Positions 26,604-46,856 of a stretch of DNA of 46,856 nucleotides are shown one piece after another. The translations under genes and the position numbers were made by a program. Source of the stretch: a phage; sequence record PZ379178.1. One strand, given 5' to 3'. The notes beneath the pieces were generated by a model. The model ran no database searches. It saw only the letters and a list, made by a program, of their open reading frames with translations, and was not told where the DNA came from. The number at the start of each line of letters is the position of its first letter. The stretch's first letter is position 1.

Positions 26604-26612
26604 CTTAACTCT

Positions 26613-27290: not shown

Positions 27291-27297
27291 AAATTAA

Positions 27298-27317: not shown

Positions 27318-27322
27318 ATTGA

Positions 27323-27398
27323 TAGCACTTTTTGTTAAAGGCTAAGTCGCGGATTGCTGTATAGTTCATTCATCGAAAAGAAATGAGAGATTAATGAA
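27323..27398 (+). promoter_or_regulatory. Box-hairpin-leader cassette, variant box
   Basis: Box TAGCACTTTTTGTTAAA 27323-27339, TATAGT, leader CATCGAAAAGAAATGAGAG from 27371; drives moron 27399. Confidence 0.5.
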
Positions 27399-27647: not shown

Positions 27648-27682
27648 TATAATCATTCAACACAAACAAAGGAGATAACGAG

Positions 27683-28311: not shown

Positions 28312-28335
28312 CCATCCTTCGGGGTGGCTTTTTTA
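28311..28335 (+). terminator. Terminator/attenuator hairpin before tape measure gene
   Basis: GCCATCC-TTC-GGGGTGGC (imperfect) followed by T6. Confidence 0.45.
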
Positions 28336-28348
28336 TTATGGAGACAAC

Positions 28349-31330: not shown

Positions 31331-31361
31331 TTAACGGGGCTTCGGCCCCTAAGGATTTTAA

Positions 31362-31712
31362 ATGGCATTGCAAACATTTAACTGGTGCTTGAACGTTCTC
31401 AACGGTGGATCATTATTTAGTAACAAGAACAACGTTAGAATTGTATCCTTTGGCAACGGCTTTGAACAAAGGGGTACTGGAGGATACAGGACAAACAAAA
31501 GGACGTATACGGTTAGCTACGTTGGTCGTGAGTGGGAGGCAGTAATGAACTTCTGCTTTGATCACATTGTAAAACCTTTCGCATGGACTACGCCACAGGG
31601 TGAATTAAAGCTGTTTGTTATTCAGCAGGATAGTATCAGCGTCACTCCTAGCACAAAAGAAGTCCAGACTGTTAGCATGCAATTTACTGAAGTTTTTACT
31701 TCAATGAGTTAA
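31362..31712 (+). CDS. Minor tail protein (gpM-like)
   Basis: 116 aa directly after tape measure, as in lambda-like tail tip order. Confidence 0.5.
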   Translation: MALQTFNWCLNVLNGGSLFSNKNNVRIVSFGNGFEQRGTGGYRTNKRTYTVSYVGREWEAVMNFCFDHIVKPFAWTTPQGELKLFVIQQDSISVTPSTKEVQTVSMQFTEVFTSMS

Positions 31713-31715
31713 ACT

Positions 31716-31739
31716 AAGGCCCATAGAGGGCCTTTTTTA
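31716..31739 (+). terminator. Rho-independent terminator
   Basis: GGCCC-ATAGA-GGGCC followed by T6. Confidence 0.5.
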
Positions 31740-31750
31740 TTGGAGAGAAT

Positions 31751-32506
31751 ATGGCAAGTTTAAAGTTTGAAAACCATCTTCAATCACTTTTTCCTGGTGA
31801 AGTGGTTACGCTTATTGAGGTTGACGGAAGTAAATTCGGGGCAAGGGTTTACAGGTTTCATGGGGAGAACATCTCATACACGCCTGAAGAAATCATGCAA
31901 GCCCAAGCGTCCGGCCAGCCACTACCATCCAAGACAATCACTTTCCGTGGAGAAGAGTATGGAGCCAGGCCTTTCGGTATTAGCGGCATTAATCTTACTT
32001 CTGACGGCAAAGCAAACAAGCTCACGCTAATTTTATCAAACGTAGACCAGGCTGTTTCCGCGCTAATACGTCAGTATAATGGCATGGTTCAGGCTAAGGT
32101 GACAATTTGGGTTACTATCAGGGATAATATCAATGAGGACGGCAGCATTGCAGATGGTGATTATCGTAAGATGGTTTACTTTATTGAGCGTCCAAAGCAG
32201 GTTGACTACAAAACTGCCTCTTTTGAGTTATCTAGCCCAATTGATATGGATGGCATTTATATTCCAGCGAGGTTAGTCCAGTCAGTATGCTACTTCGCTT
32301 CCCGTGGCTGGTATCGTAGTGGTAACGGTTGTGATTATGCCGGGAATCGATACTTTGATAAAGACAATAATCCGGTTGATGACCCTGGCCTGGATTTCTG
32401 CGCCGGAACTGTTGATGCATGTAAGTTAAGGTTTGGTGAAAACAACCAGCTATCATTTGGAGGTTGTGCCTCTGCTAGCTTGCAAGCCAAGAATAACCAG
32501 AACTAA
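31751..32506 (+). CDS. Minor tail protein (gpL-like)
   Basis: 251 aa with C-terminal Cys cluster (CDYAGN...CAGTVDACKL...GGCASA) as in gpL Fe-S proteins; position after M-like gene. Confidence 0.6.
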   Translation: MASLKFENHLQSLFPGEVVTLIEVDGSKFGARVYRFHGENISYTPEEIMQAQASGQPLPSKTITFRGEEYGARPFGISGINLTSDGKANKLTLILSNVDQAVSALIRQYNGMVQAKVTIWVTIRDNINEDGSIADGDYRKMVYFIERPKQVDYKTASFELSSPIDMDGIYIPARLVQSVCYFASRGWYRSGNGCDYAGNRYFDKDNNPVDDPGLDFCAGTVDACKLRFGENNQLSFGGCASASLQAKNNQN

Positions 32507-32516
32507 GGAGTCTAAA

Positions 32517-33275
32517 ATGCTTACACCAAAAGTTAAACTAGAAATCATGCGCCACGCAAAAGAGGATTACCCAAACGAGTGCTGCGGCGTAGTCACCCAA
32601 AAAGGCATGGCACAAAAATACCATAGAATCACCAACGCATCGAAAGACCCTGAAAATGAGTTCATTCTTGACGCCAGTGAGTACATGAATATTGTCTTTA
32701 ATCTTGGCTACAGCGAGTCAATTGTTTACGTAGCTCACTCACACACTGGAGATGGTGCAACTACAAGGCCTAGCCCGGCAGACATATGCAGTTGCAATGA
32801 GTGCGAGATTCCATATGTCATCGTTAGTTACCCGGAAGGAGATCTGCGAATCCTTGAACCAGTTGATATGCCGCTAGCAGGAAGACCGTGGGGTTTGGGT
32901 AGCTTCGATTGCTGGGGATTGATAATGTCATTCCACGCAAAGCACGGCGTCAAACTGGCTGACTACCGCGTTAATTACCCATGGTGGAACAAGGAGTATG
33001 GAGAAAATATCTATGATGACAACTGGATTAAGGAAGGATTTGAGCTAGTCGAAACTGATGATATTCCAGTTGGCTCCATGATTATGATGCAGATTCAAAG
33101 TGAGGCCACAAACCACGCAGGAATCTACATTGGAGACAATAAGTTCTTGCACCATCTTTACGGCAAGATGAGTAAAGTGGATACCTATAGTGATTACTGG
33201 CGTGAGCGTACCGTTCGAATCGTTCGCCACAAAGATTTACCAGAAGGAGCAAATTACAATGCAGAGACTGATTAA
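32517..33275 (+). CDS. Tail assembly protein (gpK-like, JAB/MPN plus NlpC/P60)
   Basis: JAMM-like HSHTGDGATTRPSPAD motif, then Cys/His (CWGLI ... HAGIY) peptidase-like region; ATG 32517 with AGGAG SD. Confidence 0.6.
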   Translation: MLTPKVKLEIMRHAKEDYPNECCGVVTQKGMAQKYHRITNASKDPENEFILDASEYMNIVFNLGYSESIVYVAHSHTGDGATTRPSPADICSCNECEIPYVIVSYPEGDLRILEPVDMPLAGRPWGLGSFDCWGLIMSFHAKHGVKLADYRVNYPWWNKEYGENIYDDNWIKEGFELVETDDIPVGSMIMMQIQSEATNHAGIYIGDNKFLHHLYGKMSKVDTYSDYWRERTVRIVRHKDLPEGANYNAETD

Positions 33276-33834
33276 GGTTAAGCTGGGCTTGTCACTTGGC
33301 AGAAGGTACGGGAAAGTCCATGAGTTGTGCGTGGAGTCTGTACCGGAAGCACTTCGAGCATTATCGGTAAACATTCCAGCATTTAAAGAGTTCATGCAAA
33401 GCCATGCTGGACAAAGGACTAGGTTCGCAATATTTGCTGACGGGAAGAACCTTAATGAACATCGTATCAAGGATTTTAAGGCAGTTGGTGAGATTCGTAT
33501 TATGCCAATACCTCAAGGAAGAAAAAGCGGAGGGTTATTCCAGACAGTACTAGGTGCGGCGCTCATTGGTGCTAGCTTCTTCCTTACTGGTGGTATTGCA
33601 ACCGCTGTTCTTGGTGCTGGTATCTCACTAGCTGCTGGCGGTGTAGCTCAGTTACTTTCCCCACAAGCAACTGGATTAAAGACGCAGGAGTCTGCGCAAA
33701 ACAGGGCTTCATACGCATTCGGGTCGGCTGTTAACACTGTAGCTGCTGGATACCCAATATGTTTGCCATACGGTTATCGAAGTGTTGGCGGCTCTGTATT
33801 TAGTGCTGGGAGTTACTCAGAAGATATCGCTTAA
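33259..33834 (+). CDS. Tail assembly protein (gpI-like)
   Basis: C-terminal Gly/Ala-rich hydrophobic stretch typical of gpI; overlaps K-like gene end. Confidence 0.5.
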   Translation: MQRLIKVKLGLSLGRRYGKVHELCVESVPEALRALSVNIPAFKEFMQSHAGQRTRFAIFADGKNLNEHRIKDFKAVGEIRIMPIPQGRKSGGLFQTVLGAALIGASFFLTGGIATAVLGAGISLAAGGVAQLLSPQATGLKTQESAQNRASYAFGSAVNTVAAGYPICLPYGYRSVGGSVFSAGSYSEDIA

Positions 33835-33840
33835 ATTAAG

Positions 33841-33863
33841 ACCCGCCTAGTGCGGGTTTTTTA
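33841..33863 (+). terminator. Rho-independent terminator before J-like gene
   Basis: ACCCGC-CTAGT-GCGGGT followed by T6. Confidence 0.6.
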
Positions 33864-33874
33864 TTTAGTGTAGA

Positions 33875-36800
33875 ATGGCACAAATGGTCAAAACAAATGC
33901 GGAGCTATGTGATATGGCGGAAGAAATTAAGATTTATGGAAGTAAGGGCGGACAGCCAAAGCAGCACCAACCTGTAGAGCAGCCTGATAACCTGATATCC
34001 GTAAACAAGGTTAAGGTTTTGCTAGCTGTTTCTGATGGTGAGGTTGATAGCTCATTCTCCCTAAAGGACCTTTACCTTGCTGACGTTCCTGTACAGAACC
34101 AGAATGGCACATACAACTACGAGGGTGTAACGGCAGAGTTTCGCCCTGGCACACAGAGTCAGGATTACATTGCCGGGCTAGAGGGTGCTAACTCGGAAGT
34201 GCAAGTGAACAGGGAGATTAAAAACTCAACTCCTTACATCATTGCTGTTAATAACACCCAGCTATCAGCGATTAGGGTTAAGCTGTTTTGGCCTCGTCTG
34301 ATTAATCAGGAAAGTAACGGAGATCTTAACGGTACCACTTGCGAGTATGCGATTGACCTGTCCGTTGATGGCGCTACATACACTGAGTACACGCGCGGAG
34401 TAGCTAATGGCAAGACAACTAGCGGGTACGACAGAAGTATCAGGGTTAACCTTCCTGCTGAGTTCTCGAGTGCGTTGGTGAGGGTTCGTAAGATCACGGC
34501 AGATTCAGAAAGTTCGACGCTGGTTAACGACATGCAAATTACGACCTATCAGGAAGTAATTGATGCTAAATTCCGCTACCCACTTACAGCGCTGGTTTAC
34601 GTTGAGTTCAGTTCTGACCTCTTCCCTAACGGAATCCCGACGATTTCAATCAAGAAGAAGTGGAAGTTGATTCGCGTTCCGACTAACTACAACCCAGAGA
34701 CAAGGACTTACAGCGGAACCTGGAACGGCACCTTTAAGATGGCGTATTCCAATAACCCGGCGTGGGTTCTTTACGACTTGGTGACGAATCAGCGTTACGG
34801 ACTTGACCAGCGAGAGCTTGGCATTACTATTGATAAGTGGGGTCTGTATGAGGCGGCGCAATTCTGTGACCAGATGGTTCCAGATGGTAAGGGTGGAGTT
34901 GAGCCGCGCTACCTGTGTGATGTTGTCATTCAGCAGAAAGTTGAAGCATATCAGGTAATCCGTGATATTTGCTCTATCTTCCGTGGGCTGACATTCTATG
35001 ACGGCGAGCAGATAGGGATTGTTGTCGATAAGCCGCGTCAACCATCGTACGTATTCACCAATGACAACGTTGTTGATGGATTGTTCAACCGTACATTTGG
35101 TAGCGATAAGTCACTTTACACGGTTGCCAACGTTCAGTTTGATGACGTTGAAAACTCATACCAACAGGATGTTGAGCCAGTATTCGAGTTAGAGGCAACA
35201 AGGCGTTTTGGTTACAACCCGGTCGACCTTACAGCTATTGGATGTACTCGCAGGAGTGAGGCAAACCGCCGCGGGCGCTGGTTATTAAAGACGAACATTC
35301 GCAGCGAGACTATTAGTTTCACTACTGGTCTGGAAGGTATGATTCCAATGATTGGTGAGGTTATTGCAGTTAATGACCAGGCATGGTCTAGCAACTACAC
35401 CCTTAACCTTTCTGGTCGTATCGAGTCAGTAAGTGGGTTGCAAGTTTTTGTGCCATTTAAGATTGATGCTACTGCTGGCGACAGGATTCTAATAAACAAG
35501 CCTGATGGAATGCCAGAGTACAGGACCATTGCATCTGTATCTGAAGATGGTATGACGCTGCAACTTAATACAGCGTTTAGCTTTACTCCTCAGCCTGACA
35601 CAGTATTTGCGATTGATAAGGAAAATCTTGCTCTTCAGCAATATGTTGTGACCGGTATTCAAAAAGCAGACAGCGATGGAGATGATGCGTTTGGTTACAC
35701 GATTACCGCAGTTGAGTACGACCCGAACAAATACGACGAGATTGATTACGGCGTAAACATTCAGGACAGGCCAACTTCAATCGTGGAGCCAGATACATTA
35801 CTGGCACCCGAGAATGTTCAGGTTAGCAGTTACAGTAAGGTTGTTCAGGGTTTATCAGTTGAGACAATGGTAATCACGTGGGACAAGGTTCAGTACGCGA
35901 AAACCTACACGGTCCAGTGGCGCAAGGAGAACGGAAACTGGATTAACGTGCCGCGCACAGCAAGCACAGAGGTTGATATTGAAGGTATCTATGCCGGAAT
36001 TTACCAGGTTCGCGTAAGGGCCGTTTCTGATACTGAAAACGTATCCGCATGGTCTGACATTGTTTCAGTAAGCCTCACAGGCAAGATTGGGACCCCTTCT
36101 TCACCTACAGTAATCACCGCTTCAGATGATGAAATATTCGGCATTAGGGTTAAGTGGGGATTTCCTGAAAACTCAGCCGATACGTCATACACTGAATTGC
36201 AGCAAGTAGCCGACAATGGTGATGGTACTTATACACCAGAGAATGCTAGCCTTCTGACTCTGGTGCCTTACCCGAGTTACGAGTACTGGCATACTACACT
36301 TCCTGCTGGAAAGGTCATCTGGTACAGGGCGCGACTGATTGACAAGATTGGTAACGTCTCACCATGGACTGATTTTGTAAGGGGTATGGCAAGCGATGAT
36401 GTGTCGTCAATCATTGGTGATATTAAGGTTGATATAGAAAACTCAGATGGGTTCAAGTATCTCCAACAGAATGCCATTGAGTCAAACGGAGCTATTCAGG
36501 CGCAAGCGGAATCAATAATTGAGAACGCCCTGGCTAATGATGGTGACGTGCGTAGAATGACGAAGGAAAACGGCAAGAGGAAGGCCGAATTTGTTCAGGC
36601 TGTGAATCTTATCGCCGATGAAGAAAGGGCTCGCGTAGAGGCTCTGACGCAGCTTAAGGCGCAGATTGATGATGAGATTGTAGCTTCATTGACAAGGATT
36701 GATACGGCGCTAGCGGAAGAGACGCAAGCAAGGACCACTGCGGACACTGCTTTATCTGCAAGGCTAGGTGATAATGAGGCTGCGTTAAATGAGAAGTTGG

Positions 36801-37300
36801 ACACTTACGTTACTGCCGATTCAATTGGTGCTCAGTACGGGATTAAACTTGGCCTCAAATACAATGGCGTTGAGTACAGTTCTGGCATGAGTATGGAGCT
36901 AACTGGTTCTGATGGCAATGTTCGTAGTCAGGTCATCTTTGATGCTAACAGGTTAGCAATCAGTAACGGCATTAGCTCTGGATCCGGTCAGTGGTCATTG
37001 CCTTTCGTAGTTGAAGGTAATCAGGTATTCATTCAAAGCGCAGTGATTCAGGATGGTTCAATCACTAACGCGAAGATTGGTAACCGGATTCAATCTAATA
37101 ACTACGTGGCTGGTTCTCAGGGTTGGGCCATTGATAAGTCAGGCAGTGCGGAACTTAACAATGCAACTGTAAGGGGTAGTCTGTACGCAAGTAACGGCAA
37201 CTTTGCGTTTAACGGAACCAACAACACTGTTCAGATTAACAATAATGGAATTACAGTTAATTTACCGAATGGTGGAAGGGTTGTAGTTGGAGTGTGGTAA
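33875..37300 (+). CDS. Host specificity / central tail fiber protein (gpJ-like)
   Basis: 1141 aa, last and largest gene of tail-tip cluster after I-like gene. Confidence 0.75.
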   Translation: MAQMVKTNAELCDMAEEIKIYGSKGGQPKQHQPVEQPDNLISVNKVKVLLAVSDGEVDSSFSLKDLYLADVPVQNQNGTYNYEGVTAEFRPGTQSQDYIAGLEGANSEVQVNREIKNSTPYIIAVNNTQLSAIRVKLFWPRLINQESNGDLNGTTCEYAIDLSVDGATYTEYTRGVANGKTTSGYDRSIRVNLPAEFSSALVRVRKITADSESSTLVNDMQITTYQEVIDAKFRYPLTALVYVEFSSDLFPNGIPTISIKKKWKLIRVPTNYNPETRTYSGTWNGTFKMAYSNNPAWVLYDLVTNQRYGLDQRELGITIDKWGLYEAAQFCDQMVPDGKGGVEPRYLCDVVIQQKVEAYQVIRDICSIFRGLTFYDGEQIGIVVDKPRQPSYVFTNDNVVDGLFNRTFGSDKSLYTVANVQFDDVENSYQQDVEPVFELEATRRFGYNPVDLTAIGCTRRSEANRRGRWLLKTNIRSETISFTTGLEGMIPMIGEVIAVNDQAWSSNYTLNLSGRIESVSGLQVFVPFKIDATAGDRILINKPDGMPEYRTIASVSEDGMTLQLNTAFSFTPQPDTVFAIDKENLALQQYVVTGIQKADSDGDDAFGYTITAVEYDPNKYDEIDYGVNIQDRPTSIVEPDTLLAPENVQVSSYSKVVQGLSVETMVITWDKVQYAKTYTVQWRKENGNWINVPRTASTEVDIEGIYAGIYQVRVRAVSDTENVSAWSDIVSVSLTGKIGTPSSPTVITASDDEIFGIRVKWGFPENSADTSYTELQQVADNGDGTYTPENASLLTLVPYPSYEYWHTTLPAGKVIWYRARLIDKIGNVSPWTDFVRGMASDDVSSIIGDIKVDIENSDGFKYLQQNAIESNGAIQAQAESIIENALANDGDVRRMTKENGKRKAEFVQAVNLIADEERARVEALTQLKAQIDDEIVASLTRIDTALAEETQARTTADTALSARLGDNEAALNEKLDTYVTADSIGAQYGIKLGLKYNGVEYSSGMSMELTGSDGNVRSQVIFDANRLAISNGISSGSGQWSLPFVVEGNQVFIQSAVIQDGSITNAKIGNRIQSNNYVAGSQGWAIDKSGSAELNNATVRGSLYASNGNFAFNGTNNTVQINNNGITVNLPNGGRVVVGVW

Positions 37301-37306
37301 ATGATT

Positions 37307-37330
37307 AGGCCCCTTTCGGGGCCTTTTCTT
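37307..37330. terminator. Bidirectional terminator between J-like gene and minus-strand operon
   Basis: AGGCCCC-TTTC-GGGGCCT followed by TTTTCTTTT; convergent genes end at 37300 and 37331. Confidence 0.65.
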
Positions 37331-38302
37331 TTAGTAGAAGTTTGGTATGAATGGTAGAGCCATTGATATGTTTGTGTCGAATGGGAATTGGGCTCCCGTC
37401 TGCGTTGAGTAGTTCCCTATCACAGTGCCTGGAACTGCCCTTACGGCACCACCAGACATGCATATTCCCTTGTACCTTAAGTTGTTATACCCTCCAGTAA
37501 CTCTTGTTGTAGCGCCGCACCTGAGCAGTGGGAAGAACCCTCCATTTATTGACTGGAAACCATTGGTTATTTGTATAAAGCCACCAAGCACGAACGGTCG
37601 CCTGACGCTTGAAAAAACAATCTGTCCAGAACTATTAGACATTGTGAGTCCTGGGCCAGCTACTGGAGGGTCATTCCTGAATATCACTAACTGTACGTAA
37701 GTACTTGCTGCAACGTCATCTATGCCGCTGTAGTTTATGTTGCGGCACCAAATTGTATTACCGTCGCTCTCCAGAGAAACGTTTGGGTTATCCCATTTAC
37801 CAAATGGAATCCCACTGACTGGTAGTGAGGCGGCGCCGTTAACCTGTATTCCACCAACCCATGCCGCAGACATTAACCGCGAATTGCTTGAAATTGCCAA
37901 AAAGTCAGTTGAGTTCTCAACCAGTATTCCTGGGCTTGATGAAGACGAGGCTGGGAGTATTTCAAAGCAATTTCCAGCAAAGTCAATTATACGACCTCTT
38001 GCGCCATTGAAGTCACTAAGCGTTATCCTGCCAGTTCCGTCATTTACCTTCTGGAACCCGTTCATATAATAAACTTCAGGTACAACATCATAAGCGTCAA
38101 CGTGCACAGCCTTTGTTGGAAGGCAGAATGCTGTTGAGCCTGTGGACATGGTTAAACCAAAATCCCATGATGATGCTGGCGTCGAAAGTCCATTGGTATT
38201 TATTGAGCCAGTCACAGCGGGCGCTCTTAATCCTGCCGTTATTTCCATAGGTGGCCTTCCGTCGTTGAGGTCTATCAATATACCCTGTGGCATTATTTCC
38301 AC
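37331..38302 (-). CDS. Hypothetical Gly/Ser/Asn-rich protein, cotranscribed with lipoprotein gene
   Basis: 323-aa ORF overlapping 3-prime end of 38293..38538 by 10 nt; convergent with J-like gene at bidirectional terminator. Confidence 0.5.
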
Positions 38303-38538
38303 TCCTTAGACCCGTGATCTGCAACTGAACCGCCATAACCTCCACCAGCCTTGCTCTCAATACCAGCGTAGCGCACATCAACTTCACCAGCCGGTACAAT
38401 CACACCATCTTTCCATTTAGCCACGCACACGCCGTTTGCTTGCGTTGCACACCAACCGTCTGGTCGCGGACTAGAAGAGCAACCTACCATCATGATTGCT
38501 GCTGCGGCGATGATTGAAAGTTTGATTAAGTTAGTCAT
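38293..38538 (-). CDS. Small lipoprotein, Cor/Llp-like superinfection-exclusion candidate
   Basis: 81 aa; signal peptide with lipobox MVGC, short mature domain; own promoter box (38606-38622); located next to tail fiber locus. Confidence 0.4.
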
Positions 38539-38622
38539 TTTAGTATTCCCTAGAATGTGTGTTTCGTTTCAATGGAGTAATGATATCTCATCATTGAGAT
38601 TTGTCTTTAGCTATTCGTGCTA
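38539..38622 (-). promoter_or_regulatory. Box-hairpin-leader cassette (minus orientation)
   Basis: Reverse-complement box TAGCACGAATAGCTAAA (38606-38622), hairpin, leader CATTGAAACGAAACACAC; precedes lipoprotein gene ATG 38538. Confidence 0.5.
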
Positions 38623-39291
38623 TTTACTTTCCAGTAACAGCTTAATGTCGATACCAAGTTTATTCTCGATCAATCCGGTCAGTGCGTCCGTCTTTTCTTT
38701 AAGAGCAAAGCATTGCGTTTCATACTTAAACCTTGCTTCCATTTCATCGGAACGTGATGCCCAAGACTGCCGAGCCTCGCAAGCAAGCATATCTAGTTTT
38801 TCATCTGTATTCTTATCCATGAGAAGGATTTCATTGATTCGCTGCTCAGCAACGATTCGCTGACTAAGGTGAGCGTTCTGCGCATTAGCCACACCAAGCA
38901 TCATGCGTGCCTCTTTTAGCTCATCAATACTAACCATCTTGCTGATTACTTCCTGTTGAGTGTTAATGGTTTGCTGCATCTCTTTTAGCTTGTTTAGAAC
39001 CGAACGACGAACAGACTTTGACTCACGCATTCCGACAAGAAGCATTTGCTCCATATTAAGCACTGGTGAGTTGATCGACTTTCTATAACCACCTCTTCCC
39101 TCACTTTTGATTACGAAACTTTCGTAGTCAAACTCAAACCCCTCAATCTCATCCTCTATCCTCTCAACAAAGTCATTGTGTCGAACATCAGATTCACCAG
39201 CAACTAACCTCGCTGGGTTGATAACTTCATTCAAAAACTGATAACTGTTCATTTTCACATCTTCATTTAGTAGAGCTAGGTTCATTTTCAT
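38620..39291 (-). CDS. Rha-like phage regulatory protein (putative)
   Basis: N-terminal SYQFLNEVINPARLVAGESDVRHNDFVERI resembles Rha-family N-domain, coiled-coil C-terminus; start 39291 after AGAGAG SD. Confidence 0.4.
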   Translation of the reverse strand: MKMNLALLNEDVKMNSYQFLNEVINPARLVAGESDVRHNDFVERIEDEIEGFEFDYESFVIKSEGRGGYRKSINSPVLNMEQMLLVGMRESKSVRRSVLNKLKEMQQTINTQQEVISKMVSIDELKEARMMLGVANAQNAHLSQRIVAEQRINEILLMDKNTDEKLDMLACEARQSWASRSDEMEARFKYETQCFALKEKTDALTGLIENKLGIDIKLLLESK

Positions 39292-39380
39292 CTCTCTTTT
39301 TTTATTCTGGCTAAGCACCATTGCCGCCATGCGCACAAATATACCCAAATACTGCATCTTGTCTTTAGCAAATCGTGCTA
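39292..39380 (-). promoter_or_regulatory. Box cassette (minus orientation)
   Basis: Reverse-complement box TAGCACGATTTGCTAAA (39364-39380), TATATT, AAAAAAAGAGAG SD; precedes Rha-like gene. Confidence 0.45.
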
Positions 39381-39500
39381 TTTATCGCAAATTTACCCAT
39401 AAATCATGGTTACGCGTAATCGATGTAACTCGATGTATACCATATGCATCCGCGGGAAATCGTATACGCCTAGTTACGCCAGTTTACGCCATAGTTACAC

Positions 39501-39556
39501 TATAATATCTATATATATCAACCTTTTACTCTTATTATTATTATTATATATATTAC
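39501..39556. repeat. AT-rich (TTA)n element, copy B
   Basis: TAATATCTATATATATCAACCTTTTACT-CTTATTATTATTATTATATATAT; 28-nt core identical to 11708-11735. Confidence 0.8.
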
Positions 39557-39871
39557 TGTGTATATCATGTAACTACTGTTCTGGAGTGTTCCGGTTATAA
39601 TTTTTATATCATGTGATTTTATACAGTATTGCGCAGCACCTATACCTATGCACCCTCCGCTAAAATCGGTATACACGGTATACTCACTATTTACATTGAG
39701 CTATAGCTTGGCTTAAGTGGCGAAAAACGTAACTCATGCCAATGTCTACACGTAGTTACAAAATTATACGCGTATACTTGATTAATTAATAGGTGATACC
39801 AATTGGACTATGCGTTGTGCGTACGGCATCATTAACTCATCGAAAGCACGCAACAATAGAGAGATAGAGAA

Positions 39872-40066
39872 ATGCCATACTTCATTATTAAAGAGAAAAA
39901 CAACGCACTGTTCGGCGATTGCTACTTTGGTGGCCCCGCTGGATATACAGTTCACAAATCTGAAGCGGACCGATTCGATAGCAAGGAAGAGGCAAAATCT
40001 ATTCTGACAGGATATTTCACTGAGGAAGATTTGAAAGCTGTTAAGATTGTTAAAATTAAGGATTGA
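39872..40066 (+). CDS. Hypothetical small protein
   Basis: 64-aa ORF, first plus-strand gene after divergent region B, preceded by leader CATCGAAAGCACG...AGAGAG. Confidence 0.45.
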   Translation: MPYFIIKEKNNALFGDCYFGGPAGYTVHKSEADRFDSKEEAKSILTGYFTEEDLKAVKIVKIKD

Positions 40067-40069
40067 GCC

Positions 40070-41041
40070 ATGACATTTAAAGTTTATACGAACGACGAGC
40101 TAACCAATGAAGCCTATCACGAAGAGAAAGACCATATCTCTGGCTCTTCGCTGGCTGAGATTCTTGCTACTTCTCCAGCAAAATGGAAATTTAAGCAGCG
40201 CAGCAACTCAAGTGCAGCACTAAAGTTTGGCACTTTGAGCCATACGATGATGCTAGAACGTGAAGTGTTCGATTCCACTTACATGCGAGCTACTGACTTT
40301 GACGAAGTGGAAGGATTGATTACTAGCCAAACAGCTTTATCGGCAGCGCTTAAAAAAGTTGGCGTTTCCGGCACGTCAGGGAAGGGTTATAACGAGCTTG
40401 TGGAGATGATGTATAAGTCTGGCGAGGATTGGCCGGTTAAATGGTTAATTGAGCAGCAGGAGAGCGCTGAGGCGTTAATTAGTGGCAAGGAGCTGGTTAG
40501 TGCTAAAGATTACGACAAGGTAATCGCAATGCGAGAAGTTCTGACCAATATTCCGGCTTACGATGCGGTAATTAATTCACCAACAGCACAGAAAGAGCTG
40601 TCAATCTTTGGTGAGATTCTCGGCTGCGGCGTTAAGGTTCGGCTTGACCACGTGGATGTTGTTAATGGAGTGGTTTACATTACTGACTATAAAACAACAG
40701 CAGACGCAAGCCCGAGAGGATTTGGTAAGTCAGCTTATGACCATGGTTACCTGTGTAAGATGGCACTTCAGCGCGATTTGTTTGTTAAAGCATTCAACGA
40801 AAAGCGTAAGGTTGTGGTTCGACTTCTGGCTCAGGAGAAAACAGAGCCCTACTTACCTATGTGCTACACACTTACAGATGAGCAGCTTCGCATTGGGCGC
40901 TTACAATATTTAGAGGCTCTGGCTGTTTACAAGCAGTGCAAGGAACTTGATGATTGGCCTGGATACAGTAATGGGATTACAGAGCAAGATTTGATGATTC
41001 CTGAGTGGGTAAATAAGCAGTATCAAGAATTACTAAAATAG
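40070..41041 (+). CDS. PD-(D/E)XK-type exonuclease (putative recombination exonuclease)
   Basis: VRLDHVDV ... VYITDYKTT matches D...D/E-x-K nuclease core; directly upstream of annealase and SSB. Confidence 0.5.
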   Translation: MTFKVYTNDELTNEAYHEEKDHISGSSLAEILATSPAKWKFKQRSNSSAALKFGTLSHTMMLEREVFDSTYMRATDFDEVEGLITSQTALSAALKKVGVSGTSGKGYNELVEMMYKSGEDWPVKWLIEQQESAEALISGKELVSAKDYDKVIAMREVLTNIPAYDAVINSPTAQKELSIFGEILGCGVKVRLDHVDVVNGVVYITDYKTTADASPRGFGKSAYDHGYLCKMALQRDLFVKAFNEKRKVVVRLLAQEKTEPYLPMCYTLTDEQLRIGRLQYLEALAVYKQCKELDDWPGYSNGITEQDLMIPEWVNKQYQELLK

Positions 41042-41111
41042 CACGAATTGCTAAAGACAAAATTAACTGGTGGGGTATCATTACCCCATCGAAACGAAAG
41101 AGAGATGTGGA
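41039..41111 (+). promoter_or_regulatory. Box-hairpin-leader cassette
   Basis: Box TAGCACGAATTGCTAAA 41039-41055, hairpin GGGGTA/TACCCC, leader CATCGAAACGAAAGAGAG from 41087. Confidence 0.5.
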
Positions 41112-41762
41112 ATGAAAACTTCTGAGCAAAACAAGCAAGTATTGAAGGCGTTATTCGAGGCTAAATCAAAGTTTGCTAAGGCTGAAAAGTCTAAGCAGAA
41201 CTCACACCTCAAGAATAAGTACGCTACTTTAGATGATGTTTTAGCAGCTGTAGAGCCAGGATTGGCTGATAGCGGACTGGTGATGTTTCAGTCGATGATT
41301 GATGATGATGTAAGCACTCGTATTAAGGTTGAAACAACAGTTTACCATGCAGAATCTGGAGAGTGGGTTAGTTTCCTGACCATAGTCCCAATCAGTAAGC
41401 AAGATGCTCAAGGTTATGGGTCATCACTTACATACGCTCGCCGTTACGCAATCACAGCGGCGTTAGGTTTAAGCCAGGCAGATGATGATGGTCAGTTAGC
41501 AGTTAAAGGCATCAACTCATTCAAGAAAGACTTGGCTAAGTGCAGTACTCTTGATGACCTCCGTGATGTTTACAAAGAGGCGAAGCAGTCACTTGATTCA
41601 GCCGGCTGGTTAGTGCTTGAGCCTCACATTATCGAGCGCAAGGTAGAGATTCAGGCCAATGCAACTAGCGGCTTTAACCCAGCAAAACCTAAGCAGGTTG
41701 CACAAAAGCCTGTTCAAGAAGAAAAAGTTGAAGTACAATCTCAAGAAATCGATACATTCTAA
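41112..41762 (+). CDS. Single-strand annealing protein, Erf-family-like
   Basis: KNKYATLDDVLAAV ... SSLTYARRYAITAALGL resembles conserved ERF core; ATG 41112 is 73 nt downstream of promoter box 41039. Confidence 0.55.
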   Translation: MKTSEQNKQVLKALFEAKSKFAKAEKSKQNSHLKNKYATLDDVLAAVEPGLADSGLVMFQSMIDDDVSTRIKVETTVYHAESGEWVSFLTIVPISKQDAQGYGSSLTYARRYAITAALGLSQADDDGQLAVKGINSFKKDLAKCSTLDDLRDVYKEAKQSLDSAGWLVLEPHIIERKVEIQANATSGFNPAKPKQVAQKPVQEEKVEVQSQEIDTF

Positions 41763-41802
41763 TTTAACGGGGCTTCGGCCACAGCATTAAGAGAGAAATA
41801 AA

Positions 41803-42219
<417 letters not shown>

Positions 42220-42229
42220 TAAAAGATAA

Positions 42230-42252
42230 AGCCCCTTTCGGGGCTTTTTTTA
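42230..42252. terminator. Bidirectional terminator between SSB and tail fiber genes
   Basis: AGCCCC-TTTC-GGGGCT followed by T7; convergent gene ends 42219 and 42250. Confidence 0.65.
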
Positions 42253-44778
42253 TTGAAGCGCCATCCTTGAGTTGGTAAATATTAAAGCGTCTCTTTGGTT
42301 ATCGAACTCTACAACGAAGTAATCAGCAAGACTTAATACCATACCAGGTAGCCCATTAAGGTTGATATGCAGGTTTGCAGTGCCAGAGACTGAAGCCTGA
42401 GCAACTCCAAATGTGTGAACCCACTTACCGCCCTCAGTGAATACCTTCCCTAAAGATGCACTACCAAAAATACTGATAACACCATCAGCACCACCTTGAA
42501 TTCTGTTTGCAGAGATACCCCAAACATACCATTTGCCAGCGGTTATATTAAAGACACCATTTATCAATTCGTACTGAGCCGCACCACCCAATTCGTAGTA
42601 TCCAGATGATTGCGAGTGTATACCCCTTGTATCAGAACCTTCACTTGCCGACCCTGTTCCACCAAAGTTGTTCCCACCAGTACCAAAAGGCTTCCTGACT
42701 AAAACAGTTCCGGAATCAGGGTTAAAAACTCGACCTTTAGTAACATATCCTCTAACAGATAAGTCAGATGTACCCGTTATCTTGGCTGTCTGTGATACCA
42801 GTGACTCAACTATAACGTTTGATGTTGAAGAGCCATTCAGGTATGCATCCTTAGCAAAAATAATACTGTTTGAATCAAGAGAGAAACTTTGATGCCCGTC
42901 AGCGTTATCAAACCTGCAACCGTAAGTAATAAGGTTTGAGTTCGACAACTCAATGTTATTAATGTAGGAATGCTCAGCAAAGAAAACAGACGTATCGATG
43001 AGCTTCAAAACCCTTGGGAGTTCAGCTCCCTCACCTACGTTAATTGCCCCACCAGTTGCTATCGCTTCAAACCATACGTTAGACAATCCGCAAGGTGATG
43101 TTGGGCAATCTCCAGGTTTATTCTTTAACCTTATACCGCCGCCAGCAGAGGCCTCCATTATTGAATCCCTAATCCACCACCCACCAATTCCTCCAGCGCC
43201 AGGGTTCGTTGCGCTACTTGTGCTTGTCGCATCTAGCATTACTGAATATTGAGAGATTGTATCTGAGTGGTATCCGTATAAAGTGTCCGCTCCTATATGC
43301 ATTTCGTCATGAGCTTTTGCTCGATACCCGTAATTCGCATTTCTAATACTTACGTTTCTGTAGGTATTTCCAATGTTGCCAGCATTTTTCCTTATACCAA
43401 CATCCAGGTCATTGAAGTAAAGCCTATCCAATACAACCCTTCCAGCATAAGGGCCATCCGGGAATTGAAAGCCGTTATTACCTTGTATTGCAGTACCTGT
43501 AAACTGCAAATCCGATAAATGCTTTTGCCTCCAGTGCGGAACCGATAGCGTTGAGGTGAGTCCGGTTTCAAAAGGTTTAACACTTATTACGGTATTATAT
43601 CCAGAGCCTGATATGTTCCTGCCAGCAAAGGAGTAGTTATTACTCTCATAAGTTCCCGGGCTTATAACTACCGACCCGCCATCGCCAGCGGCTTCTATTG
43701 CTGAAGATATTGAGCCGCTATAGCTTGATGTGCTTTTTGAATCTGTATTTAAAATTGATGATAATTCGCTCTTTGAGTAAACATCAAGGTTGGTTCTTGC
43801 TTCTGCTTTATCTGCAACATCAGATAAATTCAATGATTTTTGAAAAGTCTCATTTTTTGAGTAAACATCAAGCAAGCCTCTTACTCGCTGGGCGCTAGCG
43901 CCGCCAACCTTACTTCCTGATGCGACATAAAGAGCCTCTCTTGAATAGTAAGTTTTGTTTGGTGCCGTGCCAGTCTGAGTTAAATCAATCAACCTGTACG
44001 TATTATCGGATCCGGTTGATGCTGACACTTGTATGTTCTTAACACCAGTAATCCCCCTTGATGACTTAACCTCAATCGCACAAAGCGTGCTATCGGAGTA
44101 GGTTATATTTATCACCTCTGGAGCGTTGATCATTGCTGACTTTTGGCATAGGTATCTAGCTCCTGATTTGAAATCAAACGTATTCCAGTCAAGTTCTGTC
44201 AACTGAGGTGTAAACGAGCCACCGATACCCATATTGGCAAGAGTTACCATTGTGCCAGCATCACCAGCACTATTAATTGCCTCAATAGTAGCATCTCTCG
44301 CTGATGTGGTTGTATCCCTTGCGCTAACGGCAGTAGCGGCGCTCTCTGCGGCAGCAATCTGGCTAGCTAAAGACTCGGCAGCCCCTGTTACTGATTGGTT
44401 TGCTAATTGCTCGAAGCGAGGCCAATCGAAATTATCTTGCCCGATAAATTGCAGCAAACTTTCAATAGAAGTCTCCTTTGACTGATAGTAACGCAGAGTC
44501 TCAGCAACATCCTGAGCTAAACCCTGAACGGTAATGCCATCGTGAGCAAGAATCGCGTAACCAGTTCCGGCAGGAACAGTTTCAGAATTAGGGTTGTAAA
44601 CATTAATCTGAGTGTCGCTGATGATTTCAGAGATGGTATAAATTTTAAGTGGACTGGTTTTAAAAATAATGGTTGCACCTACACGAATAAGTGTAAGTGG
44701 TGCTTTCCATGTTGTCCGGACGCCAGTAACCTCGCCATTTGCGGCTAGCGACGCTGTTCCTAAGTCATAAATTGCCAT
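42250..44778 (-). CDS. Tail fiber / tailspike-like protein
   Basis: About 842 aa; central region with repetitive Asn/Gly/Ser-rich beta-helix-like segments; start ATG 44778 preferred over GTG 44808. Confidence 0.6.
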   Translation of the reverse strand: MAIYDLGTASLAANGEVTGVRTTWKAPLTLIRVGATIIFKTSPLKIYTISEIISDTQINVYNPNSETVPAGTGYAILAHDGITVQGLAQDVAETLRYYQSKETSIESLLQFIGQDNFDWPRFEQLANQSVTGAAESLASQIAAAESAATAVSARDTTTSARDATIEAINSAGDAGTMVTLANMGIGGSFTPQLTELDWNTFDFKSGARYLCQKSAMINAPEVINITYSDSTLCAIEVKSSRGITGVKNIQVSASTGSDNTYRLIDLTQTGTAPNKTYYSREALYVASGSKVGGASAQRVRGLLDVYSKNETFQKSLNLSDVADKAEARTNLDVYSKSELSSILNTDSKSTSSYSGSISSAIEAAGDGGSVVISPGTYESNNYSFAGRNISGSGYNTVISVKPFETGLTSTLSVPHWRQKHLSDLQFTGTAIQGNNGFQFPDGPYAGRVVLDRLYFNDLDVGIRKNAGNIGNTYRNVSIRNANYGYRAKAHDEMHIGADTLYGYHSDTISQYSVMLDATSTSSATNPGAGGIGGWWIRDSIMEASAGGGIRLKNKPGDCPTSPCGLSNVWFEAIATGGAINVGEGAELPRVLKLIDTSVFFAEHSYINNIELSNSNLITYGCRFDNADGHQSFSLDSNSIIFAKDAYLNGSSTSNVIVESLVSQTAKITGTSDLSVRGYVTKGRVFNPDSGTVLVRKPFGTGGNNFGGTGSASEGSDTRGIHSQSSGYYELGGAAQYELINGVFNITAGKWYVWGISANRIQGGADGVISIFGSASLGKVFTEGGKWVHTFGVAQASVSGTANLHINLNGLPGMVLSLADYFVVEFDNQRDALIFTNSRMALQ

Positions 44779-44802
44779 TGTGTAAAGTCTCCATTTGTAA
44801 AG

Positions 44803-44819
44803 TAGCACTAATTGCTAAA
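44803..44819. promoter_or_regulatory. Isolated box copy TAGCACTAATTGCTAAA with ambiguous orientation
   Basis: Box overlaps tail fiber 5-prime region (start 44778, minus) and lies beside primase terminator hairpin 44853-44866; no downstream leader on plus strand. Confidence 0.35.
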
Positions 44820-44843
44820 GTGGATTGTATCATCTTTCAGGTA

Positions 44844-44866
44844 TAAAAAAACCTCCCGAAGGAGGT
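44844..44866 (-). terminator. Rho-independent terminator after primase gene (minus strand)
   Basis: CCTCC-CGAA-GGAGG with A7 on plus strand (T-run on minus). Confidence 0.55.
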
Positions 44867-45792
44867 TAGTCTAGTAATTCGTTTGCCTTGTATATTCTCT
44901 TTCTTATGCCTGACTTGAAAAAATTACCATCATTTGGAATTACAATATCAAGATTGCGATCGTCAGCAACGGCAAGTAAATCAAAAGAGTTGCGAGTACA
45001 AGCGACGCGTAACTTGTAGTTCCTAAGCGCATAAGCAACCATTTCCATGTTGTAGCTGGAGTGGCAAACAAGCACGCAGCGATTTCCAGTAGCAAGATGA
45101 ACGCGAACACCATCAATCCAATTATCGACCAGATAAGCGTACTCATCATCTTTAAAGGTGCCAATAATAGAAACAGACTGGCGAGTATAATCTTTTGCAG
45201 CATAGCTAACATCTCCATCTTCATTGATAAACATTACATTGCACATATCATCTGATATGCCGTCACTATAAGCCATAAAGCACGGTACTGCGTGTATTAG
45301 TTCGCCTGATTTCGTCCTGCCAACATCAAAACCAAATTCGCTATAGATACCCTCGTATGTACTTAGCGGAGTTAATTCTACTCTTTCCGTCCTTTCCATT
45401 ATCTCTAAGCATCTTTCGTGATCAATCTTGGCGCCCATTTTGTATGGTGATGTACGAGATGCTCTTTTGTTTGCTTTTGATATAACCTCTACTGGAACGA
45501 GATTCAGCCAATCACCAAGCGTATCTATTGTTTCGCTATAACTCATTCCCGAGCATTTCATAACCCAGCCAACACCAGAATCATTTCCGCACTGGTTGCA
45601 TATTGCTGCGCCATTTCCCTTTTCCTGACCTAACTCATCAGTGAAGCGAAACCTATCCCTGCCAAAGCAGTAAGGGCACGGACCATGTTTCTTGCTGAGA
45701 TTCTCCTTTGTCCATCCAAGGTTCGATGAGTAGAATTCGCCCCACATTCCCTTCATTTTTGCTATCACTTCGCTCTTATCATGGTGACTCAT
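44866..45792 (-). CDS. DNA primase-like protein (zinc-binding domain)
   Basis: N-terminal CPYC-x17-CNQC zinc-ribbon; start 45792 with GGAGG SD; promoter box upstream (45844-45860). Confidence 0.5.
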   Translation of the reverse strand: MSHHDKSEVIAKMKGMWGEFYSSNLGWTKENLSKKHGPCPYCFGRDRFRFTDELGQEKGNGAAICNQCGNDSGVGWVMKCSGMSYSETIDTLGDWLNLVPVEVISKANKRASRTSPYKMGAKIDHERCLEIMERTERVELTPLSTYEGIYSEFGFDVGRTKSGELIHAVPCFMAYSDGISDDMCNVMFINEDGDVSYAAKDYTRQSVSIIGTFKDDEYAYLVDNWIDGVRVHLATGNRCVLVCHSSYNMEMVAYALRNYKLRVACTRNSFDLLAVADDRNLDIVIPNDGNFFKSGIRKRIYKANELLD

Positions 45793-45860
45793 AGTTACCT
45801 CCATAAACAATAAAGGCACTATACACAATGTATAGCGCCACTGTTTATCAATTCGTGCTA
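45793..45860 (-). promoter_or_regulatory. Box-hairpin-leader cassette (minus orientation)
   Basis: Reverse-complement box TAGCACGAATTGATAAA (45844-45860), palindrome CTATACATTGTGTATAG, GGAGG SD; precedes primase ATG 45792. Confidence 0.5.
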
Positions 45861-46340
45861 TTTCCCTTGCTCTTTATCTTTTCGTGCTGCTTCGTTAGCG
45901 GCCTTAATCTTGCGCCATGAGCGACACTCTGGTTTAGTTGCTAGCTCAGCCTCAGTAACAACACGCAGCATATGACGCTTCTTGCAACGTAGAGTTAGCG
46001 GTTTCCCGTTACCGTCGAATTGCAGATCTGGTCGGCAGAATGTAGCGCGAAAACCTTCTCCATTTCGCTTATAGTAGTTGTGCGACAACTGAGCGCCACG
46101 CGCAGAAATCATCCCGCGATCAAACCATTGCTCTACAGTCTGGTGAGATACATTTAACTGCTTGGCGATATTGGCCTTCGTGCCGTAGAAATCAAGAACC
46201 ATCTCCAGACGAGCTCGTAGCCCAGCCTTTACTTCATCTTTCAATACGTAGTAGCCTGACGGTCGTTTGCGCTGTTTCTTGTCTTGCGTGCGGATGGTTC
46301 CGTTATTGCCGTTGATAGTTCGCTTGTCAATTTCACACAT
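45858..46340 (-). CDS. HTH-type DNA-binding protein (putative regulator)
   Basis: 160 aa, basic; TKANIAKQLNVSHQTVEQW resembles helix-turn-helix. Confidence 0.45.
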   Translation of the reverse strand: MCEIDKRTINGNNGTIRTQDKKQRKRPSGYYVLKDEVKAGLRARLEMVLDFYGTKANIAKQLNVSHQTVEQWFDRGMISARGAQLSHNYYKRNGEGFRATFCRPDLQFDGNGKPLTLRCKKRHMLRVVTEAELATKPECRSWRKIKAANEAARKDKEQGK

Positions 46341-46363
46341 CTCATTACCTCAATAGCACTTTT

Positions 46364-46436
46364 TGTTAAACAATAGGTTCGATAATTGCTATTATACAGC
46401 AATGCAACGAACTAACAAACTGTAAGGGTATTTAAA
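46364..46436 (+). promoter_or_regulatory. Box cassette, variant box
   Basis: Box TAGCACTTTTTGTTAAA 46364-46380, TATTAT, leader CAATGCAACGAAC; precedes helicase ATG 46437. Confidence 0.45.
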
Positions 46437-46856
46437 ATGCTTCCAGTAGAGCGCTTAGTGGCGAACTTTGATAAAGAGAAAATTAAACAGATTCAGAAAG
46501 ATTACCAGTTTGGAGACATAACGCCTTACGAATTCCAGTGCGTGACATTTGACGCAATCGGTAAGGCTATTGGCAAGTACGAAGCGCCATTCATCGCAGA
46601 CCTGTCGGTGTCTGCTGGTAAGACAATTATACTCGCCATGATTGGGAAACGAATGGAACAGCTTGGCCTTCCTTACATGGTCCTATCTCGCCAGTCAGAG
46701 ATTATCAGCCAGAACGCAGAGGAACTTCGTAATTTCGGCATCCGTAATAGCGTCTATTGCGCTGGCCTTAACGTTAAATCAGTTTACTACCCAACCATAG
46801 TGGCTAGCGAGGGTACGGCTGCCAACGGCTTATTTAAGGGGCTTGGTGACTATGTT
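46437..46856 (+). CDS. Helicase N-fragment, 5-prime part (runs off window end, continues at nt 1)
   Basis: ATG 46437 is 73 nt downstream of promoter box 46364; Walker A SVSAGKT; 140 complete codons to window end, in frame with nt 1 ORF. Confidence 0.6.
   Translation, partial: MLPVERLVANFDKEKIKQIQKDYQFGDITPYEFQCVTFDAIGKAIGKYEAPFIADLSVSAGKTIILAMIGKRMEQLGLPYMVLSRQSEIISQNAEELRNFGIRNSVYCAGLNVKSVYYPTIVASEGTAANGLFKGLGDYV

Follow-up and report, generated by a model that had tools for sequence, protein, structure and literature searches.

PZ379178.1 is a phage sequence record of 46,856 nucleotides (nt), read here as one strand from 5' to 3' and, at its full length, referred to as the window. Its two ends raise the question of how a helicase gene can run off the last base, resume at the first base and then meet a stop codon at 388-390, and where the remainder of the enzyme is encoded. 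We propose that the window is a complete, permuted genome in which the helicase gene is fractured at its DEAH box by an element comprising the two halves of a split intein (IntN and IntC) and a LAGLIDADG homing endonuclease gene, and that this element would act by protein trans-splicing and by homing. Judged by the sequence comparisons presented below, this combined explanation is very probable.

The ends of the window join within a helicase gene

A preliminary description of the window had stated that the open reading frame (ORF) opened by ATG 46437 comprises exactly 140 codons (...GLGDYV) up to the last base and that nucleotide 1 carries on in the same frame with PAVIAIDE; translation shows both statements to be accurate. 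The Walker A motif SAGKT (46611-46625) and the motif II residues DE (19-24) are likewise present as claimed. The reading of the frame beyond nucleotide 1 as helicase holds for eight codons, after which intein sequence (CLTGDT...) follows up to the stop at 388-390. The Cys after DE, which had been taken as plain helicase, is residue 1 of the intein, and the remaining helicase, contrary to a plain continuation at nucleotide 1, is a separate ORF at 1006-2715.

The join itself was analyzed with a 2,258-nt query running from 46399 through the window end into nucleotides 1-1800, which was compared to a set of 50,697 phage records. The query was matched over 100% of its length, as one ungapped piece with 98.1% identity, by Escherichia phages ES (OR466728) and AN_ECEAS (PP944860). 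No gap was found at the join in a MAFFT alignment of the window, ES, AN_ECEAS, phiA2-1 and TR2, and relative to these four relatives no base is missing or extra between the two ends. Whole-genome blastn placed window 45863-46856 on ES 29798-30791 and window 1-3217 on ES 30792-34008, the window ends 46856/1 thereby falling on the adjacent ES bases 30791/30792. The two genomes are colinear all round and differ by a simple rotation, with window 1 to 46856 corresponding to ES 30792 to 48005 followed by 1 to 30791. The uninterrupted join in ES and AN_ECEAS and the rotation of ES bear out the proposal of a complete circular or circularly permuted genome, and the join is far more than a one-in-three coincidence of reading frame. 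That the assembly start had been placed arbitrarily within the helicase gene is borne out as well, as the record ends of other phages are internal to the window: those of ES (48005/1) map by blastn at window 16404/16406, and the origin of phiA2-1, a record deposited as circular, maps at 20057/20058. PHROG searches also agreed with the statement that the phage modules are present once each (TerS, TerL, portal, protease, major capsid, tape measure, central and side fibres, primase and endolysin). No direct terminal repeat of 10-400 nt was found at the contig ends.

The nearest relatives belong to the Drexlerviridae, subfamily Braunvirinae, and the window resembles the headful genomes of T1-like Drexlerviridae in the taxonomy of its relatives, genome size, gene order and circular closure of the assembly. 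The view that it spans one full genome length of a T1-like (Drexlerviridae, Braunvirinae) coliphage is supported by these comparisons. Because circular permutation and headful packaging have been reported for T1-like genomes (PMC7718038), the virion DNA of this phage is, by analogy, most likely linear, terminally redundant and circularly permuted, and packaged by a headful mechanism. The assembler would have closed the genome into a circle and then opened it arbitrarily inside the replication helicase gene; a circular join is an ordinary, routine property of such assemblies. For curators, the contig can be regarded as complete and could be re-opened near the small terminase gene, at approximately window 16,405, as in ES.

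An insert in the DEAH box divides the helicase into separate reading frames

Phages phiA2-1 and TR2 are insert-free and encode the helicase as a single ORF of 664 amino acids (aa) reading ...AIDE/AHMVDH... at motif II; at the insertion site, the insert-free allele (TR2 or phiA2-1 helicase) has the sequence ...ATAGATGAG/GCGCACATGGTGGAC.... When aligned to these helicases, the gap corresponds to exactly 25-1164 of the window and lies between IDE and HMVDH, with the Ala preceding HMVDH exchanged for Cys. This +1 Cys (1165-1167) converts DEAH to DECH and occurs in insert-bearing alleles only. After PAVIAIDE, frame 1 of the window reads CLTGDTMITT..., and about 1.1 kb past the insert start the same frame reads ...HHNFIADGVVAHN/CHMVDH. 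Conceptual removal of the insert joins 148 and 516 residues into a 664-aa protein that aligns without gaps to GP36 of phiA2-1 (544 of 664 residues identical) and to the TR2 helicase (556 of 664).

Within the insert, frame 1 is closed by 10 stops between 388 and 987, the first at 388-390 and nine more before 1005. The locus instead consists of three overlapping ORFs on the same strand: 46437..390 (269 aa; N-extein and IntN), 219..1073 (284 aa; endonuclease) and 1006..2715 (569 aa; IntC and C-extein). A canonical contiguous intein, encoded as one polypeptide in one frame, is thus not found here, and the same applies to all lineages with the three-ORF layout. The architecture itself is a near-certain sequence fact, and its signature points to a class-1 intein inside the helicase DEAH box. 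Scans for promoters (8 found, compared to 6.4±2.7 in shuffles) and terminators (4 found, compared to 2.7±1.7) showed no excess at the locus. The features are collected in Table 1.

Table 1 Features of the fractured helicase locus in the window, listed in order of the joined reading direction.
Feature	Position	Strand	Basis
Helicase N-extein, codons 1-140	46437..46856	+	Translation; partial matches to Pfam ResIII and NCBIfam RadD-like; contiguous with nt 1 in ES and AN_ECEAS
Final 8 codons of the N-extein (PAVIAIDE), ending in motif II DE; insertion point 24/25	1..24	+	Alignment with insert-free phiA2-1 and TR2
Entire putative mobile insert, 1,140 bp = 380 codons (split intein and homing endonuclease gene)	25..1164	+	Alignment
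IntN, 121 aa and TAG 388-390; Cys1 25-27; block B TxxH (TSTH) 223-234	25..390	+	TIGR01445; mini-intein homology
Shine-Dalgarno-like GGAGAGG, 7 nt 5' of the endonuclease ATG, within IntN codons (SGEE)	205..211	+	Sequence context
LAGLIDADG homing endonuclease gene, free-standing, 284 aa, -1 frame relative to the intein halves	219..1073	+	PF03161; AF2/Foldseek
G AAA AAG with A5 run 325-329, candidate -1 slip site in the IntN frame, unsupported	324..330	+	Sequence
IntC, 53 aa (MSFLRELVSTWKMAWNTK...VWDIEMPEHHNFIADGVVAHN); GAGG 992-995; terminal His-Asn 1159-1164	1006..1164	+	TIGR01443
Helicase C-extein, 516 aa and stop	1165..2715	+	Pfam Helicase_C

Distribution and conservation of the three-ORF element

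The element was found in seven of the 50,697 phage records, and among the 91 records matching the junction query in two. Five Pectobacterium phages (Abuela, Amona, Ymer, Koroua and Sabo) have the same three-ORF layout, with copies that share at most 69% nucleotide identity with the window (IntN 56%, endonuclease about 43%). In addition, nine metagenomic loci (L007, L009, L010, L012 and L015-L019) encode a ResIII N-terminal piece, an endonuclease in the -1 frame and a Helicase_C C-terminal piece, the insertion always being located at DE/C...HN/C. The endonuclease has 21 homologs in a collection of 5.8 billion proteins, all of them 167-286 aa long. The insert length, computed for four lineages (the window, L005, L007 and L009), is 1,140 or 1,143 bp.

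All three parts of the insert are under purifying selection. Between lineages, in the non-overlapping partition, the proportions of nonsynonymous (pN) and synonymous (pS) differences were 0.14-0.36 and 0.48-0.75 for IntN, 0.17-0.42 and 0.69-0.84 for the endonuclease, and 0.10-0.27 and at least 0.86 for IntC.

This distribution bears on the possibility that the frame changes are homopolymer indels, introduced by sequencing or assembly into a one-piece LAGLIDADG intein. A-runs do occur close to both frame switches (325-329 and around 1054-1069), the insert length is divisible by three, and P0102 (see below) shows that the same helicase site can hold a one-piece intein whose endonuclease domain is related. 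However, the window, ES and AN_ECEAS were sequenced independently and are free of indels over the insert, and the same -1/0 frames, stops and internal starts recur in the five Pectobacterium phages and the nine metagenomic loci. Furthermore, the -1 frame is open for about 45 codons upstream of any possible frameshift point, which would not be expected for a one-piece gene. An origin of the frame changes in sequencing error is effectively refuted.

The three-ORF arrangement is rare, and in every public phage record bearing the element it is unannotated as an intein. In all seven records, among them the loci L001 (ES; 3039-6173), L002 (AN_ECEAS; 3039-6173) and L005/L006 (2963-6074), the pieces are annotated separately with no intein named, and some of the public names are wrong ('minor tail protein', 'putative single-stranded DNA binding protein'), others being 'hypothetical protein'. 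According to a paper from 2024, inteins were so far unreported from E. coli and coliphages (PMC11162368); the literature covered here consists of open-access papers, in which a missing report does not amount to proof.

IntN and IntC carry the motifs of a class-1 intein

The N-terminal product scored 32.9 bits against the NCBIfam model for the N-terminal splicing region (TIGR01445, cut-off 24.5), and the C-terminal product scored 27.0 bits against that for the C-terminal splicing region (TIGR01443, cut-off 15.6). Matches to Pfam PF14890 stayed partial and under the gathering score, which is what half domains should give. IntN is homologous to the Spl DnaX mini-intein (7cfv, E = 1.2e-9) and to Ssp DnaB (1mi8), with residues 2-93 forming the HINT fold and the final ~25 residues a variable tail. 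When IntN alone was compared to an index of 5.8 billion proteins, a single candidate and no match was returned, probably owing to the way in which the word index treats so short a query.

All class-1 motifs are present: Cys1 (25-27), TSTH in block B, VWDIEMPEHHNF, AHN (1156-1164) and the +1 Cys (1165-1167), with blocks F and G reading VWDIEM..HHNF..AHN. Cys1, the block-B Thr and His, the block-F Asp, the penultimate His, the terminal Asn and the +1 Cys are invariant in the 11 lineages compared. IntC is 53 aa long in the window and 53-58 aa elsewhere. An alternative IntC start at 1042, used in the AN_ECEAS annotation, was rejected in favor of 1006, because the inner Met is missing in L016, L018 and L019 and the upstream Met (window 1006, with GAGG 10 nt upstream) is kept in 11 of 11 lineages.

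Because the catalytic residues are invariant and purifying selection acts on both halves, protein trans-splicing of the two helicase fragments offers the most economical reading. A different view would be that the halves no longer splice and that the element is tolerated, either since the helicase is dispensable or since IntN and IntC hold its two fragments together non-covalently. Fragmented phage enzymes that assemble unligated are documented, an example being the NrdA fragments of phage Aeh1, split by a homing endonuclease gene (PMC3045599), and the motif II region of a superfamily 2 (SF2) helicase might tolerate a large insertion. We nevertheless find the loss of splicing unlikely: the chemistry residues have stayed invariant over 11 lineages with up to ~50% amino-acid divergence, the Ala to Cys exchange that supplies the nucleophile in the DEAH box is confined to insert-bearing alleles, an unspliced HINT domain of ~170 residues within the catalytic DEAH box can be presumed to interfere with ATP hydrolysis, and the carriers include plaque-forming isolates.

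A LAGLIDADG endonuclease gene overlaps both intein halves

The middle ORF matched Pfam PF03161 (LAGLIDADG_2) with 31.1 bits, above the gathering threshold of 25. Its motifs are C.CGCG (339-356), motif 1 GDG (516-524, in the context LAAMAGDG) and motif 2 GDDG (801-812, in the context YFGDDG); GDG (residues 100-102) and GDDG (residues 195-198) are invariant in 19 endonuclease sequences. An alignment-based AlphaFold (AF2) model of the core, residues ~85-284, had a predicted local distance difference test score (pLDDT) of about 90, and the top Foldseek matches of this model were I-WcaI (E = 2.8e-9) and I-SceI (E = 1.5e-8), which ranked above the intein-embedded domains of PI-SceI, TliVMA and PI-PfuI. 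With two motifs bearing acidic residues, a profile score above threshold and the matching fold, the protein has the features of a monomeric double-motif LAGLIDADG enzyme. Compared by sequence to PDB chains, the endonuclease gave no meaningful match. In the stretch 219-470 (residues 1-85), a conserved C.CGCG...GHH resembles a small zinc-binding motif and could possibly provide extra DNA binding.

As the family (PF03161) and the fold (I-SceI, I-WcaI) are closest to intron-encoded enzymes, the insert could be imagined to be a group I intron with an I-SceI-type LAGLIDADG ORF, acting at the RNA level. An Rfam search of the contiguous ES copy, covering group I and II introns, was however empty at E ≤ 1, and both ends of the insert encode in-frame HINT motifs that pass curated intein models and are under protein-level purifying selection. 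An intron at this site is therefore extremely improbable.

With IntN, the endonuclease gene shares 172 nt (157-214 nt across lineages), and with IntC 68 nt. Its probable start codon is part of the hexamer ATGCAC at 219, which consists of the wobble base of the codon before the block-B Cys and that Cys codon itself. ATGCAC is invariant in 11 of 11 lineages, and in all 11 the -1 frame is open back to it. The Shine-Dalgarno-like G(G)NGAGG is found 5' of ATGCAC in eight of the lineages, the other three having GGGGGA or GGTGA, which are weaker. A wobble T that would create a stop in the -1 frame was found at none of 104 at-risk positions in the overlap, compared to 183 of 510 in the single-coding parts of the same ORFs (Fisher p = 1.7e-18), and the random chance of the overlap staying open was 0.3-7% per lineage. 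Over the C.CGCG segment, wobble identity was 0.758, compared to 0.571 in non-overlapping IntN. Public annotation, e.g. of ES, places the start at 366. This position was rejected: the homologs P0008-P0011 and P0017 have no ATG there and all keep the upstream C.CGCG, P0008-P0011 beginning at an MH... methionine, and the -1 frame upstream is selectively kept open. The start at 219 is preferred because of the stop avoidance, the conserved Shine-Dalgarno sequence with ATGCAC and the homologs that lack the inner ATG. That the endonuclease is active is the most economical reading of these patterns of conservation.

The overlap also speaks to the idea that programmed frameshifting yields a one-piece precursor, by a -1 shift at G AAA AAG (324-330) and a +1 shift near the endonuclease stop. 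E. coli tRNA-Lys is known to shift readily on A AAG. The heptamer G AAA AAG is present twice, codon-aligned, in the IntN frame (324-330 and, on the same + strand, 357-363), both just before C.CGCG, and a -1 shift at the former would give a product colinear with the in-frame fusion P0061 (see below). Against this, the heptamer is found at the 324-330 position in only 5 of 11 lineages, where it is explained by Glu-Lys-Ala codons of the endonuclease frame, there is no evident +1 shift motif at the 3' junction, a Shine-Dalgarno sequence and a start codon are conserved for both the endonuclease and IntC, and the -1 frame is already maintained open far 5' of the putative shift site. We regard a frameshifted precursor as very improbable.

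Mosaicism and indications of mobility

The divergence between the window and ES changes abruptly at the element. The upstream region is 11.0% diverged and the N-extein 7.4% (33/444), compared to 0.26% (3/1140) for the insert, i.e. 99.7% identity to the ES and AN_ECEAS copies, and 0.48% for the following 842 nt of the C-extein. Upstream of the element, the mismatch to ES closest to the insertion point is window nucleotide 3, at a distance of 21 nt (Fisher p = 7e-16). Comparisons between lineages likewise show less divergence in the intein parts than in the exteins; when the window was compared to L012, for example, pN was 0.142 for IntN and 0.337 for the N-extein, and pS was lower in IntN too. 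The pattern suggests recent homing with one-sided co-conversion, homing being proposed because of the sporadic distribution of the element and the mosaic breakpoint at the insertion site. The pattern also agrees with a report that nuclease genes in phages are often located at exchange boundaries (PMC10448857).

Further differences between the window and ES were observed elsewhere. A 400-nt patch in the helicase C-extein (2007-2406, + strand) is 16.5% diverged from ES, with both flanks under 1%. In the tail module, a 170-aa ORF at 26091-26603 (+ strand) has an HNH_3 domain (Pfam E = 1.7e-23) and lies in a segment, 26112-26629, that ES lacks; this ORF probably represents a further, free-standing insertion of the homing endonuclease type. 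Two more segments lack an ES counterpart: 38625-39406, with a 245-aa ORF on the - strand (38620-39357) that has no Pfam match, and 20599-21378, with a 242-aa Mu F-like ORF on the + strand (20617-21345). These two are accessory or replaced genes that set the phage apart from ES, its nearest relative.

Proposed mechanism

In the mechanism that we propose, the two helicase fragments would be translated separately, after which IntN and IntC would associate as a HINT domain and ligate the exteins by protein trans-splicing into a 664-aa DECH helicase. The endonuclease would be made independently from its own Shine-Dalgarno sequence and ATG inside the IntN block-B codons. It would cut intein-less DEAH alleles of co-infecting relatives, and repair would copy the whole element into the cut allele (homing).

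Several points weigh against this mechanism. Splicing, cleavage, homing, the real translation starts and the physical termini are all inferred from sequence, and complementation of the IntN and IntC halves is argued from motif conservation. An AlphaFold prediction of cis-fused IntN and IntC, made with no alignment, had a pLDDT of 43, and the ~25-residue tail of IntN and the ~12-residue N-terminal extension of IntC could affect their association. The N-terminal ~85 residues of the endonuclease are a low-confidence part of its model (pLDDT about 50-60). In the first part of the overlap, wobble identity rises slightly (0.617 compared to 0.571), and this part may need openness only rather than a defined sequence. 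The 11 lineages are related and do not constitute independent trials. Lastly, the mosaic boundary could be an ordinary recombination breakpoint, since the phages are mosaic elsewhere as well, e.g. in the 16.5% patch at 2007-2406.

Related architectures and the direction of evolution

An exhaustive profile search with the endonuclease alignment, covering 1.84 billion representatives, yielded 20 close endonuclease clusters, all of them stand-alone (163-304 aa), and below a score gap more distant LAGLIDADG_2 proteins, some of them long. Two of these distant proteins show related architectures. P0102 (858 aa), with the domains ResIII/DEAD...Helicase_C, harbors a one-piece intein at ADE/C...AHN/CH, the same motif II site, and its endonuclease domain is related to that of the window (E = 4e-10). 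P0061 (547 aa, from 14 contigs) comprises N-extein, IntN, CKCGCG and LAGLIDADG in a single frame. At locus L020 (JGI metagenome 3300048653, 3001-5538), P0061 is followed by a single TAA, a 12-nt gap and IntC with C-extein in the same frame, resulting in two ORFs. The parts of P0061/L020 are homologous to those of the window (endonuclease including CKCGCG 8e-17, IntN 2e-6, IntC 6e-10), and in the window a single additional A within the A5 run (325-329) would be enough to bring IntN and the endonuclease into one frame, as a fusion colinear with P0061. L020 thus shares with the window the type of host gene and the DE/C site, but has two ORFs instead of three overlapping ones, whereas in the window the endonuclease is frame-shifted and has its own start. 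An IS605 OrfB/TnpB-like gene is located about 2.4 kb upstream in L020.

One-piece, two-piece and three-ORF states of related elements thus coexist at the same helicase motif. The three-ORF state looks derived, because a start and an extension that overlap the block-B codons could only arise in place. A one-piece intein at the DExH site, similar to P0102, would first have gained a stop after the endonuclease, giving the two-piece form of L020; frame shifts would then have detached the endonuclease, which would have gained a new start and an N-terminal extension of ~40 residues by overprinting the IntN block-B codons. The outcome would be a trans-splicing split-intein pair and an autonomous endonuclease that home as one unit. 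That the family of the window is a canonical LAGLIDADG intein caught after coming apart, with its pieces still working and still mobile, we suggest only tentatively, as somewhat less than an even chance. The opposite direction, a stepwise fusion toward bifunctional inteins, is equally open.

If either the fission or the fusion view were true, the element would offer a tractable E. coli phage system with long-postulated intermediates between free-standing endonucleases, split inteins and bifunctional inteins, and the route connecting these three could become testable in a culturable coliphage. LAGLIDADG enzymes are the commonest endonucleases in inteins. Natural split inteins from fractured phage genes, such as gp41-1 and NrdJ-1, are widely used protein-ligation tools; the IntN/IntC pair (121 + 53 aa, Cys1/Cys+1) would, if it does splice, be a new natural split-intein pair for protein engineering and is a candidate for protein ligation. 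The 172-nt dual-coding overlap, in which a Shine-Dalgarno sequence and an ATG are drawn from conserved block-B codons, is moreover a clear example of overlapping genes under joint constraint.

Comparison with known systems

The endonuclease was compared to I-SceI and I-WcaI (PDB 1r7m and 6x1j). It resembles them in the fold of residues ~85-284 (TM-scores of 0.66-0.70 on the target), in the two LAGLIDADG motifs with acidic residues and in belonging to Pfam PF03161. The sequence identity is 16%, however, and the two known enzymes are encoded in mitochondrial group I introns, whereas the enzyme of the window is encoded between intein halves and has an extra N-terminal region of ~85 residues with C.CGCG...GHH. 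Canonical one-piece LAGLIDADG inteins, e.g. PI-SceI, share with the element the class-1 HINT motifs and an endonuclease located between blocks B and F. They are encoded by a single ORF, in contrast to the window with its 10 in-frame stops and an endonuclease in another frame.

Inteins of actinobacteriophages with frame-3 EndoVII-like ORFs or antisense LAGLIDADG or Vsr-like ORFs have been described in a bioRxiv preprint of 2025 by Gosselin, Arsenault and Gogarten, who argue that overlapping intein-endonuclease architectures are overlooked (10.1101/2025.01.02.630785). These inteins and the element of the window have in common an endonuclease out of the splicing frame that is missed by annotation, and evidence of continuing transfer. 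As far as described, the actinophage intein frame stays open across the endonuclease, whereas that of the window is closed and truly split, and the hosts of the latter are Enterobacterales phages. A sense-strand LAGLIDADG gene in the -1 frame between split halves is not among the architectures listed by these authors.

The closest known arrangement is that of fractured genes, i.e. split inteins with a free-standing homing endonuclease gene between the halves, from which the gp41-1, NrdJ-1 and IMPDH-1 split inteins originate (Dassa et al. 2009, PMC2677866). By its gene organization, the element of the window belongs to this group: IntN and IntC are on separate ORFs of one enzyme at the same locus and strand, with the endonuclease gene between them. 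Both have the same-strand order of N-extein with IntN, endonuclease, and IntC with C-extein, the host gene functions in phage DNA metabolism, and the carriers are mostly phages. The 3' end of the endonuclease gene overlaps the start of IntC by 6-69 bp in the loci of Dassa et al. and by 68 bp in the window. In contrast, the endonucleases of the former are GIY-YIG or Vsr-like, LAGLIDADG being unmentioned in PMC2677866, and that of the window is I-SceI-like LAGLIDADG; a non-coding spacer of 27-51 nt follows IntN in the former, whereas in the window the endonuclease begins within IntN, with an overlap of 157-214 nt across lineages in the -1 frame. The host gene is a gp41/DnaB-type helicase in the former and an SF2 DEAH helicase in the window, and the sources are marine and freshwater metagenomes as opposed to cultured E. 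coli and Pectobacterium phages. Where the known fractured-gene intermediates had GIY-YIG or Vsr-like enzymes, a LAGLIDADG version is thus found here in three homologous states. The departures in spacer and endonuclease family make the element a variant of the fractured genes and not a different kind.

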